This document shows, piece after piece, positions 42,489 to 46,560 of a stretch of 64,000 nucleotides of DNA. Under the pieces are notes generated by a model. The model had not been told where the DNA came from. It did no database searches and was given only the letters and a program-made list of their open reading frames with translations. Positions within the stretch are counted from its first letter, which is position 1, and each line of letters starts with the position of its first letter. Origin of the DNA: a virus. The translations under genes and the position numbers were made by a program. Location: positions 46,390 to 110,389 of the IMG/VR virus record IMGVR_UViG_3300017605_000140, one strand, 5' to 3'.

Positions 42489-42725
42489 TTACCACGTGGT
42501 AGCGAATCTTGCAACTTCTTCTTCAGTCAGCTTACGTCCTACATGCCAACCTTCACAGAAGGCGCAAGGATAGCCTTCCATATCTCTGCTGTACTTTATA
42601 CTTAATTTATCTGCTGATTTTTCCGCTGTAGCTTCTGACTTGTAGTCTACCTTATTACCACAAGTCGCATCAATGCCATAGTGGAGTCCCGCAGCTATGT
42701 GCATTGATATAGCTTCGGGTTCCAT
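42489..42725 (-). CDS. Small Cys/His (zinc-binding) phage protein coupled to the Ro60 gene
   Basis: 'C..K..Y....A...Y.C..C.GWH'; ATG 1 nt after the TROVE stop. Confidence 0.65.
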   Translation of the reverse strand: MEPEAISMHIAAGLHYGIDATCGNKVDYKSEATAEKSADKLSIKYSRDMEGYPCAFCEGWHVGRKLTEEEVARFATTW

Positions 42726-42726
42726 A

Positions 42727-44307
42727 TTACCTGTTCTCCCAAGGCCAAGTCTGTGATTCCCCAGCTTCAATCAATGGTATCATCTGAAATCCCTTGTCAG
42801 TCAATCCTCCGAAGGTATGACGCTTCTTCGAACCAGACTCACTGTGCGCTGCTGCGTATCCCTCTAGGTTCCAAGTATACACAGGAACCCTGGCCGGAAC
42901 AACAGCTAGTGGATCACCACCGTAACCATTGTACTGCTCATCGGTGATAATGATAATACGATCATGACCATTGAAGCTACCCCGAACCGCCACATCGGTA
43001 TCAGTGCCTCCCATATCACGGAACTTATTCAGCATAGGCAGAATAGAGTCACCCTTACGGAATGAAACCTTCTCAAATGCGGGACCATTATAAGCAGAAC
43101 CGAACTGAACCAAATCCGCATTCTCAGCACGAAGTGCAAGTGCTGAACCGAAGATAGCAGCCTTATCAGCCATCGTCAACTCAGTGTCAGTACGGTGGTA
43201 GCTGAACATAGAACCCGAACGGTCAACCAGGATAAGCGTACGACCAGTAAGAGACGGAATATTACTGAGAGAAGCATTCAAAGCATCTTCCAATGCCGAC
43301 CCTATCTTCAAGCTACCCTTAGTGGCCTGATAAGCCGCAAGGAATCGGAAAGGAAACTGCTTACTCTTAACAACTTGCTCAGGATCAGCAAGCTTACTAA
43401 GCACCCCATTCAGTACCCTAACACTAACACCGGCATCCTGGAAGTTACGCAGATTGCGAAGTAGTGCCATGTATCCCATATTAGGAATAATAGCTTCCCA
43501 AGCCTGCTTATCCATAGGACCCTGGAGCCATCCTGCCATCGCCTCCCATGTCATTCCGGCTTCACCCAGAAGATTGTTACCCTCGTTGCGCAAAAGCAGT
43601 TCTCTGCGCAGTTCGGGACGGAAACTCACAAGGGTCTCACGATTGCGTATCATCTTAAGAATCTCAGGAAGAACCTCTACATTTCCGTAGCGACGATCCA
43701 GAGCATACTTGAAAAGCTGATTCTGCTTAGAGGATTCCGCAGAAGGGTGTGTCAACTGAATAACATCCGCAAAACGGTATCCCTTAGAATCTGTATCATA
43801 CTTCAGCAGACTGTACTCATTATAGAGCTTCTTTGCTCCATCAGCAACACCCTTCTTCAGGTACGCAGGGAAGTTCTTACCGTACTTAGCCTCGTAGTAA
43901 GCCAGCACCTCTCCAGGCTCATCAGCACGAGCCTGAGAAGCCGCTACGATGGCCCTAGGAGTCCCATTCATGGCCCCAGAGTCGTAGAGTGCCTTAGAAC
44001 CCTCAACAGCCGCTACGATGGCCGCAGAGCGCATGAAGGCATCATTGCGAAGCCAGCCAACAAAGCCCTGGAACCACTTAGGGTCCTGAACAGCCACGGA
44101 AGCACACAGGTTGGTGAAACGATCATCACGGTTCTTGGCAGACTCATAGAAAGTATCCTGACCGACAAAATTGGATACTGCCAGCAAGAACAACTCTGAC
44201 TTGGTATCCCTCCCAAAAGCTGCGCGACCATCATGATTTACAGTCATACCTGTAGTCTTAATAGGAGACTGCACCCCTGTACGAACCGCCCTATTGAACT
44301 TGCTCAT
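42727..44307 (-). CDS. rsr: Ro60/Rsr TROVE + vWA domain RNA-binding protein
   Basis: 'ELFLLAV..F..QDTFYE', 'RADEPGE', 'DV..L.HP', 'MTWE', 'MGYMALLRNLRNF', 'SKQFPFRF..AY', MIDAS 'VDRSGSM', 'GGT', 'IITDEQ'. Confidence 0.95.
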   Translation of the reverse strand: MSKFNRAVRTGVQSPIKTTGMTVNHDGRAAFGRDTKSELFLLAVSNFVGQDTFYESAKNRDDRFTNLCASVAVQDPKWFQGFVGWLRNDAFMRSAAIVAAVEGSKALYDSGAMNGTPRAIVAASQARADEPGEVLAYYEAKYGKNFPAYLKKGVADGAKKLYNEYSLLKYDTDSKGYRFADVIQLTHPSAESSKQNQLFKYALDRRYGNVEVLPEILKMIRNRETLVSFRPELRRELLLRNEGNNLLGEAGMTWEAMAGWLQGPMDKQAWEAIIPNMGYMALLRNLRNFQDAGVSVRVLNGVLSKLADPEQVVKSKQFPFRFLAAYQATKGSLKIGSALEDALNASLSNIPSLTGRTLILVDRSGSMFSYHRTDTELTMADKAAIFGSALALRAENADLVQFGSAYNGPAFEKVSFRKGDSILPMLNKFRDMGGTDTDVAVRGSFNGHDRIIIITDEQYNGYGGDPLAVVPARVPVYTWNLEGYAAAHSESGSKKRHTFGGLTDKGFQMIPLIEAGESQTWPWENR

Positions 44308-44384
44308 CTTTCCTCCTATAATGTGGTACGTTATTTAGATAAAATAAAACCCCTCAAGTGCGCCAACGCGGACCAAGGGGAAGA

Positions 44385-44504
44385 TTAGTAAGTTCCTAGA
44401 AATAACAATCTCTGGTGTATAGGCACCGTGCCCTAGATGGATTCGAACCATATTATTTCATTTCCAGTGAAGTAACCAGTGATTTTCGCATCGGAATTTA
44501 CTAA
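44385..44504 (-). ncRNA. Y-RNA-like element 1 (T-loop plus hairpin insert)
   Basis: stem-GATGCGAA-stem2-TACTTCA-[atgg TTCGAAT ccat, hairpin]-stem2'-TTATTTCTA-stem'. Confidence 0.8.
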
Positions 44505-44605
44505 GATGAAAAATAGATGGGTCGCTCTGCTGAACACCTAGTAACCCATAGGGATGATAGGAATTTACATACTGCTGTCTCTCACTCTATTTGTCAATAT
44601 TGCTA

Positions 44606-44679
44606 TACCCTAGAAAAAGTCGCTCATGGTGTCTTTGATTACCATTAATGTGAAGTAACCATGAGCTGCGCATCGGGTA
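44606..44679 (-). ncRNA. Y-RNA-like element 2 (minimal, no tRNA domain)
   Basis: taccc-GATGCG-ca-gctcatggt-TACTTCA-loop-accatgagc-gacTTTTTCTA-gggta. Confidence 0.75.
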
Positions 44680-44699
44680 AAACTTATTAAATTATATTA

Positions 44700-44837
44700 A
44701 CAGCTAGAAATAATCAACTACGGCATTTCTATACCGATGCTCTGCCATTGAGCTATTTACCGATGAGTCGGTAACAGAGGATTCGAACCTCTTGTCTTCG
44801 GTTCCGGTTGAAGTATCCGTAATTTTCGCAACGCTGT
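44700..44837 (-). ncRNA. yrlA: YrlA-type Y RNA with a circularly permuted tRNA-like domain
   Basis: Scaffold encloses T-arm agagg-TTCGAAT-cctct, loop-closed acceptor ttaccga-ctca-tcggtaa, TA, D-arm gctc-aatggca-gagc and stem accga/tcggt; next to the Ro60 gene. Confidence 0.88.
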
Positions 44838-44944
44838 CAAAACTGAATGATAGAAGGGATAAGAACGTTCGTATCAAGATTACTGGGACGTTGTACTCGA
44901 TTACAGCCGCTAGCAGGCTACCCAAACCTTCTATCAAGTTTACG

Positions 44945-45031
44945 GTGACTAGAAATAATGATAAAAGTATTATAAACCCCATTTTCGGTGGAGTATTTTC
45001 ATTGAAGTATCTCTTATCTTCGCATCGTCAC
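44945..45031 (-). ncRNA. Y-RNA-like element 4 (single hairpin insert)
   Basis: gtgac-GATGCGAA-gataagag-aTACTTCA-...-cttttatc-aTTATTTCTA-gtcac. Confidence 0.75.
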
Positions 45032-45034
45032 AAG

Positions 45035-45107
45035 CTCGCCCACCTGGACTCGAACCAGGAACCGTCGCATTAACAGTGCGAAACTCTGCCAATTGAGTTA
45101 TAGGCGA
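45035..45107 (-). tRNA. tRNA-Asn(GTT)
   Basis: tcgca-ctGTTaa-tgcga. Confidence 0.9.
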
Positions 45108-45152
45108 ATACGGTCACTGTAGCTCTCGCGGTAATGACCTTGTGTACTACAT

Positions 45153-45182
45153 ATACTACCAGAGGTTGTTAGGCTCTGTCAA
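45153..45182 (-). promoter_or_regulatory. Internal promoter upstream of tRNA-Asn, the Y-RNA array and Ro60
   Basis: Minus strand TTGACA-18 bp-TAGTAT. Confidence 0.6.
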
Positions 45183-46317: not shown

Positions 46318-46560
46318 ATTTGAACCTTTCTAGAAAGAATTACTTTATGCTATAGCAATTCCTAATTGTACCCTAGAAAGATTATTTAGTGGACTGGTGG
46401 TCTCATCCCTCTGCCTGCTTCCGTAATCGTCCAAATACGGAGTATCTTCCACCACGGAGGCCCTACCCGTAACCGCGCCTCTTCTTGCTTGCCAAGCCGT
46501 CGAATAGGTGGCGACTTGAAGCACTCCTACCCAGGATTGGGTATCCTATTACGTGCTACG

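Follow-up and report, generated by a model that had tools for sequence, protein, structure and literature searches.

Y-RNA-like modules with one scaffold and different cores beside the Ro60 gene of a Streptomyces-type phage

A 64,000-nt stretch of viral DNA (IMG/VR record IMGVR_UViG_3300017605_000140, positions 46,390 to 110,389; the window hereafter) carries on its minus strand a gene for an orthologue of Ro60, and directly upstream of it lie four elements that are, with a probability of roughly 85% as judged from sequence comparison, Y-RNA genes, their small non-coding products being partners for the Ro60 that the phage itself encodes. This identification is supported by synteny, by covariation, by near-exclusive linkage to Ro60 genes in phages and bacteria, and by CGAA and YUAY marks; on these grounds the central claim of a preliminary description of the window, that Y-RNA-like modules with one scaffold and different cores lie beside a phage Ro60 gene, is borne out. 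Particles of Ro60 and Y RNA constitute a conserved RNA-surveillance system. The gene and the four elements are as follows (R1 is the covariance model described below, and z is the z-score of the fold):

42727..44307, minus strand: Ro60 orthologue, 526 aa; TROVE domain, then a vWA domain with a DxSxS metal-site motif
44945..45031, minus strand: candidate Y-RNA module A; scaffold with a single-hairpin core, no T arm; R1 50.3 bits, E 1.7e-13
44697..44840, minus strand: candidate Y-RNA module B, YrlA-like; scaffold with a circularly permuted tRNA mimic; R1 84.5 bits, z -3.1
44606..44679, minus strand: candidate Y-RNA module D; 9-bp inner stem and a ~20-nt loop akin to UGGUGAAA loops; R1 60.9 bits, z -3.3
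44385..44504, minus strand: candidate Y-RNA module E; extended outer stem, T arm and 5-bp hairpin, no D arm; R1 72.8 bits

The 526-aa protein has the domain order by which Ro60/Rsr proteins are recognized, a TROVE domain (a HEAT-repeat ring in such proteins; Pfam search, E 2e-18) and after it a vWA domain that carries a metal-site motif; the Pfam VWA_2 score of 21.9 bits lies under the cut-off of 27, and the DxSxS motif is readable in the sequence. Compared with the Ro60 of Thermus phage phiLo, for which structures are available (PDB 9kop/9l5y), it gives an E-value of 2.5e-26 and 27.7% identity, and it is 64-69% identical to proteins annotated as 'Ro-like RNA binding protein' in Streptomyces phages and 46-54% identical to bacterial Ro60 orthologues. 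No Ro60 gene of a Cluster C mycobacteriophage occurs among the 60 tblastn matches listed, nor among the top host genera.

Scaffold and covariation

All four elements are present on the minus strand where they had first been proposed, and their cores match those proposed for them (a hairpin in A, a permuted tRNA mimic in B, a short loop in D, a T-loop plus hairpin in E). From 5' to 3' each consists of an outer stem, G(A/U)UGCG-N-A-(G/A), an inner stem, (U/A)UACUUCA, the variable core, the 3' strand of the inner stem, 4-5 nt, UUUCUA and the 3' strand of the outer stem. The outer stem has 5-8 bp, with an invariant C-G pair closing its inner end; the inner stem has 8-10 bp and, in module E, a 1x1 mismatch. 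The outer stems read gtgac/gtcac, (tt)gacagc/gctgt(taa) and taccc/gggta and, in module E, ttcc/ggaa lengthened by ttagtaa/ttactaa; the stems quoted in the preliminary description, said to vary in sequence and still to pair around constant loop motifs, do pair as described. The pattern TGCG-N9-14-TACTTCA occurs four times in the window vs 0.16 expected, and none of 100 shuffles reaches four.

Published bacterial Y RNAs are encoded next to rsr, as a rule on its strand and no more than a few kb away, have ends that form a stem, and carry GNCGAAN0-1G in the 5' strand and a YUAY mark, both conserved; in each species at least one of them has a permuted tRNA-like domain (PMC4201824; bioRxiv 10.1101/312249). 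In the window, the layout of stem, internal loop and stem with paired ends is found in all four modules and is supported by covariation. The internal loop contains CGAA in modules A, B and E and CGCA in module D, and the YUAY mark appears as UUAC or AUAC directly after the inner stem.

To obtain R1, 25 modules were aligned with MAFFT (alignment A1) and the two stems were written in as structure. A1 is out of register at the inner stem because of bulges and differences of 4-5 nt in the tail; R1 was thus built from an approximate structure, and the modules were then realigned to it (alignment A3). Searched against the window and the whole 110-kb genome, R1 matches only the four known sites (E 1e-11 to 1e-21). 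In A1, which is free of any model, 92% of the outer-stem cells are paired, and single positions show as many as four types of pair. In A3, which holds 79 modules, 90.3% of cells pair, vs 35-47% when the partners are slid; changes on both sides occur at 14 of 14 pairs, and the score is reached by 0 of 500 shuffles (a count, not a probability). The 51 modules that did not serve for training pair at 91% (41-48% slid) and the 13 bacterial modules at 94%. UACUUC is unchanged in all 79 modules and the 5' loop reads G(A/G)UGCG-N-A-G; in the 3' loop Streptomyces phages have UUUCUA and bacteria GAUCUC. At single loci the same is seen as compensatory change, for example gtgAc/gTcac vs gtgTc/gAcac in the outer stems of orthologous A modules. 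Stem change with pairing kept is the signature expected of selection on RNA. Covariation at homologous loci, and a covariance search of phage and actinobacterial genomes, had been proposed as checks; both stems covary, and the matches lie almost only at Ro60 loci.

The covariation bears directly on a different account of the repeats, in which they would act at the level of DNA (as operators, recombination sites or repeated promoters), or would be tRNA genes in decay, rather than being functional RNAs. Two observations speak for it: a TTGACA-17-GATACT sequence in module B is conserved in all 12 BRock-like phages, and GenBank places tRNA calls within some orthologous modules. Against it, the 79 modules contain 40 distinct outer-stem and 63 distinct inner-stem sequences that are more than 90% paired, and neither ARAGORN nor the Rfam tRNA model calls any of the four window modules as a tRNA gene, while the 28 true tRNAs around them are called. 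The account is scarcely credible, because the stems covary.

Several points weigh against the identification as Y RNAs. Because A3 was fitted to R1, its pair counts lean towards the model, and the slid partners and the non-training rows serve as the controls; and the modules are related to one another, so that shuffle controls overstate significance. The published GNCGAAN0-1G is only approximated, as UGCGAA(N)G and in module D as UGCGCAG, the first G being U here. Single-sequence folding is significant for modules B (RNAfold z -3.1) and D (-3.3) and not for modules A (-0.6) and E (-0.7); with these mixed values, structural support rests on covariation rather than on folding energy. A terminator-like hairpin lies between the array and the Ro60 open reading frame (ORF), which makes co-expression with Ro60 less than certain. 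Finally, module B scores 29.3 bits (E 4.5e-4, permissive search) against Rfam YrlA (RF02553), for which the gathering score is 69, and at gathering thresholds Rfam finds only tRNAs in the window.

The comparison with Rfam YrlA, also proposed in advance, was thus divided: the alignment of module B takes in the whole model (positions 1-114) and includes the T, acceptor-like and D arms, and the score stays below the threshold. In other actinobacterial Ro60 loci the same model gives 36-44 bits for bacterial and phage modules, coinciding with the best R1 modules, and the curated model appears to be insensitive for this clade. Since module B is below threshold as other actinobacterial modules are, it is termed YrlA-like. 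Its core, as aligned to Rfam YrlA, comprises a V region, a T arm, a closed acceptor-like stem of 7 bp and a D arm; the V region is long, and tRNA position 48 (of the 15:48 Levitt pair) is ambiguous. Tertiary pairs of this kind, and modification by TruB and DusA, are further marks of YrlA. Among the four modules, the tRNA mimic that characterizes YrlA is found in B only, where AUAC follows the inner stem.

Related modules in phages and bacteria

The window belongs to a 110-kb phage genome that is complete and has direct terminal repeats; the source is a soil phage of Streptomyces type, its nearest named relatives being the Streptomyces phages GiJojo, pSt2308, BRock, Alone3 and LuckySocke (Ro60 64-69% identical). 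Between tRNA-Asn and Ro60, five modules (A-E) are found in GiJojo, pSt2308 and Alone3 and four in BRock; the window array comprises A, B, D and E, without module C. R1 also locates three to five tandem modules ahead of the Ro60 gene of seven more IMG/VR phages. The Gordonia phages Neville and VanLee have two or three, the large Streptomyces phages JustBecause and Kradal a single one apiece, and Arthrobacter phage Atuin has one module upstream of Ro60 and four downstream.

The family extends to bacterial chromosomes. In five whole actinobacterial genomes (5-10 Mb), 11 of 13 R1 matches lie at the Ro60 loci that had been fetched. The remaining two form a pair at G003:C1:1117745-1118141 (Streptomyces sp.), far from the known Ro60 locus of that genome, and possibly mark a second one. 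In a sample of 151 genomes of one order, R1 matches occur in nine (6%), and at 9 of 9 fetched loci a Ro60 orthologue (46-50% identity) follows immediately downstream on the same strand. With laxer filters each bacterial locus shows two to four modules, four being found in a Streptosporangium locus and in two others. The matches lie near-exclusively at Ro60 loci, which ties the module family to Ro60 genes. A layout with several members is no innovation of the phages, although the BRock-like phages have the largest sets.

This linkage weighs on the possibility that the modules act independently of Ro60, as mimics of tRNA that serve as decoys or sponges for tRNA enzymes of the host or for its tRNA-targeting nucleases, and merely sit in a tRNA operon. 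Their place within a cluster of 28 tRNA genes would suit such a role, as would the T arms of modules B and E and the complete tRNA-like body of B. However, modules A and D keep the full scaffold without tRNA features, the bacterial family lies almost only immediately upstream of Ro60 genes (with one extra pair in G003), and the conserved part is the handle and not the tRNA-like core. A Ro60-independent decoy is highly improbable, because the handle is what is conserved and the family follows Ro60.

Four classes of core recur across the family: complete tRNA mimics, cores with only a T arm, short loops of UGGUGAAA type, and plain hairpins. Short-loop modules of the module D type recur in phage relatives and bacterial loci. 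Modules of 73-85 nt with a UGGUGAAA-type loop are seen in Streptomyces chromosomes, in Atuin and in BRock-like phages (window 44606-44679, minus strand; L016:2238-2311; L018:2238-2310; L010:1944-2017; the D modules of the relatives), and from their sequences they look like a conserved second class of Y RNA, distinct from the T-arm-bearing YrlB of Mycobacterium smegmatis. The module E type, at 112-113 nt, is also present in L024, L025, L026 and L032.

Two spacers of about 100 nt separate modules of the window array:

44841..44944, minus strand: A-B spacer, 104 nt; long hairpin closed by a ~12-pair stem; minimum free energy -26.8 kcal/mol, z -2.1
44505..44605, minus strand: D-E spacer; unique to this genome; z -0.07, no significant fold

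A degenerate fifth module was sought in both with R1, filters off, and none was found. The A-B spacer lacks the Y scaffold and matches neither Rfam nor GenBank phages. It shares 88% identity with L026:1869-1969, which occupies the same A-B position in an IMG/VR phage whose Ro60 is only 65% identical, and it may represent a further small RNA. The D-E spacer likewise has no scaffold, and no match in the compared loci or in GenBank phages; in the relatives the D-E distance is only 3-8 nt.

Several modules of other phages lie under existing annotations. GenBank tRNAs fall inside Y-RNA modules in GiJojo (tRNA-Arg(cct)), in Alone3 and LuckySocke (tRNA-Ser(gct)) and in VanLee (tRNA-Arg(tct)), and the small hypothetical ORFs of Neville genes 88-90 overlie modules:

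L005:2269-2343, L008:2274-2347, L009:2274-2347, L011:2165-2236, L012:1963-2373: annotated tRNAs or ORFs over modules

These calls are probably misannotations. The tRNA call in GiJojo and Alone3 arises because GAUGCG is able to pair with the strand after the T arm; that pairing, which would give a standard tRNA fold, is lost in BRock and in the window, and the fold was rejected. A practical consequence is a correction of annotation, as some Y RNAs of GenBank phages are labelled as tRNAs or small ORFs. A separate structured element was noted in BRock at L007:4579-4742, between two tRNA-Lys genes downstream of Ro60, where the manA RNA model (RF01745) scores 49.7 bits vs a gathering score of 55.2.

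Expression signals and proposed function

The minus-strand cluster of 28 tRNA genes (ARAGORN, Rfam tRNA model) is interrupted by the Ro60 ORF, and the order along that strand is tRNA-Asn (45107-45034), the four RNA elements, and the Ro60 gene (44307-42727), the modules lying 78-724 nt upstream of the Ro60 start. Three further features frame the array:

45153..45182, minus strand: sigma-70-type promoter-like sequence TTGACA-18-TAGTAT, TG-extended; 10/12 matches, the best in the region; upstream of tRNA-Asn
45034..45107, minus strand: tRNA-Asn(GTT), directly abutting module A
44341..44380, minus strand: hairpin plus U tract, intrinsic-terminator-like, between the array and the Ro60 ribosome-binding site; -15.6 kcal/mol, z -2.4

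The preliminary description had placed a promoter at the head of the array. The TTGACA-18-TAGTAT sequence is real as a consensus match, and it stands at the head of tRNA-Asn and the array together rather than of the array by itself. As the promoter-like site precedes tRNA-Asn, which abuts module A, the presumptive unit is tRNA-Asn plus the four RNAs, and these are probably co-transcribed. The arrangement of tRNA-Asn followed by the array is common to GiJojo, pSt2308, BRock and Alone3, and BRock has a comparable TTGACA-17-TAAGAT upstream of its tRNA-Asn.

A second promoter-like sequence lies at the start of module B (44840-44812, minus strand; TTGACA-17-GATACT), and it is found at the same place in L005-L008, L021-L026 and L032. 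Its TTGACA is invariant in 12 of 12 BRock-like phages, including two T's that are unpaired in most copies. In 11 of the 12 B modules (L032 is the exception) an A precedes UACUUC, where other modules mostly have U, and this A supplies A2 of the -10 element. Bacterial and Atuin modules are without such a site. The DNA of module B may double as an internal promoter in these phages.

Equivalents of the hairpin before Ro60, with stems that have changed and still pair, occur in GiJojo (z -3.6), BRock (-5.2) and L026 (-2.1); transcription of the RNA unit may stop at this hairpin, or the hairpin may control how much of it reads through into Ro60. Between it and the ribosome-binding site lies a ACGUACCAC motif (44323-44331, minus strand), kept just upstream of the Ro60 Shine-Dalgarno sequence in the window, GiJojo, pSt2308, BRock and Alone3.

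These signals are the setting in which the modules might be read as a structured 5' leader of the Ro60 mRNA, which Ro60 would bind at the repeated handles, thereby controlling its own translation or else the termination of transcripts at the downstream hairpin. A leader would explain why the array directly precedes the ORF on one strand, why a conserved hairpin and U tract stand between it and the ribosome-binding site, and why no promoter-like site was found from the hairpin to the ORF. However, a pure leader role is very unlikely because four of the Atuin modules sit downstream of Ro60. In addition, the Y RNAs of Salmonella are located 3' of rsr, the upstream RNAs of M. smegmatis are processed to discrete Ro-bound species (PMC4201824), and tRNA-like cores would have no obvious purpose in a leader.

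Y RNAs for the phage's own Ro60 are the preferred reading, and for their processing, Ro60 binding and partners we infer the following scheme. tRNA-Asn and the four RNAs would be transcribed as one precursor from the promoter-like site at 45182-45153, with additional transcription possibly starting from the conserved site inside module B. The precursor would be cut into single RNAs, as in M. smegmatis YrlA/YrlB, each with its ends closed by the short outer stem. The handle that Ro60 binds would be made up of the internal loop (5' GAUGCG-N-A-G with CGAA; 3' UUUCUA), the inner stem and the invariant UACUUC, and the variable core would be the effector side, presenting a permuted tRNA body in B, a T arm in E and simple loops or hairpins in D and A. 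A common handle with variable cores implies that one Ro60 could be loaded with alternative RNAs, and these might gate its cavity or tether different partners such as PNPase. Tethering of PNPase has precedents in Deinococcus and Salmonella. The roles put forward in the preliminary description, which are care of the tRNA pool, defence against RNA-targeting systems and action as decoys, find no support in the present results.

No RNA-repair or RNase partner (RtcB, ligase, PNPase or kinase) was found among the neighbouring ORFs scanned. An ORF of 78 aa (42489-42725, minus strand) starts at the Ro60 stop codon; it matches no Pfam family and has a C...CxxC pattern, from which its product may be a small zinc-binding partner translated with Ro60.

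A broader proposal is tentative and on balance doubtful. According to it, the Ro60 proteins of actinobacteria and actinophages would be served by two to five classes of Y RNA going beyond YrlA and YrlB, among them the short UGGUGAAA-loop class in bacteria and phages and classes without tRNA mimicry. The phage would have expanded this repertoire into a tRNA operon so as to switch Ro60 between host effectors or substrates during infection (e.g. PNPase, or enzymes of tRNA processing and repair), with the DNA of module B doubling as an internal promoter.

BRock, GiJojo and Alone3 are lytic phages of Streptomyces amenable to laboratory culture, and their four to five compact Y RNAs, with one handle and different cores, offer a natural series for asking what the cores recruit and what Ro60 does for the phage.

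Comparison with known Y RNAs

The preliminary description regarded a four-member modular set as being of an unprecedented kind, and this view does not hold. M. smegmatis has YrlA and YrlB (PMC4201824), Thermus phage phiLo has Yrl1 and Yrl2 (PMC12135203), and R1 finds two to four modules at bacterial loci and three to five in sibling phages. The known scheme of Ro60 and Y RNA is conceptually unchanged by this locus. What is added is a larger set, a strongly conserved 3' strand of the handle and a link to multi-member bacterial arrays, R1 showing that actinobacterial Ro60 loci often go beyond the two Y RNAs described and contain up to four. No paper on Y RNAs in Streptomyces phages was found in the literature, where genome announcements give only 'Ro-like RNA binding protein'. 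YrlA-like RNAs also occur in mycobacteriophages (Chen et al. 2014, RNA 20:1715, PMC4201824; Rfam RF02553), and in a Listeria phage three abundant RNAs upstream of an Rsr-like gene have been speculated to be Y RNAs (PMC12282133).

By its sequence the window set is best placed among the Y RNAs of YrlA/YrlB type known from actinobacteria, with four members instead of two; the link to the M. smegmatis RNAs is drawn through actinobacterial Ro60 loci and published descriptions. YrlA and YrlB lie upstream of rsr and are made as one precursor that is processed to discrete Ro-bound RNAs, YrlB having a T arm only (PMC4201824). The window array shares with them the tandem, same-strand position upstream of a Ro60 orthologue, a host in the same phylum (Actinobacteria), one permuted tRNA-like RNA with a 7-bp acceptor-like stem and another with a T arm only, the CGAA-type motif and YUAY. 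Unlike the two RNAs of M. smegmatis, there are four here and five in several relatives, modules A and D have no tRNA-like part, the phage array is fused to a tRNA operon, and the Rfam YrlA score is below threshold. In the literature, conservation of the Y-RNA handle has been described for the 5' strand only, whereas here the 3' strand is also strongly conserved (UUUCUA in Streptomyces phages, GAUCUC in bacteria).

Among phages the closest described case is phiLo, in which two RNAs upstream of Ro60 have a stem-bulge-stem form with CGAA in the bulge and bind Ro60 in a CGAA-dependent manner (NAR 2025, PMC12135203); in vitro the phiLo Ro60 ribonucleoprotein binds and attenuates host PNPase (PMC12135203). 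The window likewise encodes a homologous Ro60 with Y-like RNAs just upstream, built as stem, internal bulge with CGAA and stem. It differs in that phiLo has two RNAs without described tRNA-like domains and a host of another phylum, and in that binding was shown in vitro there, while here it is predicted from sequence.

More distant parallels are found in the sets of vertebrates (four Y RNAs in humans) and of Deinococcus (Yrn1 and Yrn2), in which paralogous RNAs combine one Ro60-binding stem with differing loop or effector domains. No sequence relationship to the window modules is detectable, the handles of those RNAs are bulged helices of GGUCCGA type, and they are not co-transcribed in an array with tRNAs; the modular logic, however, is identical.

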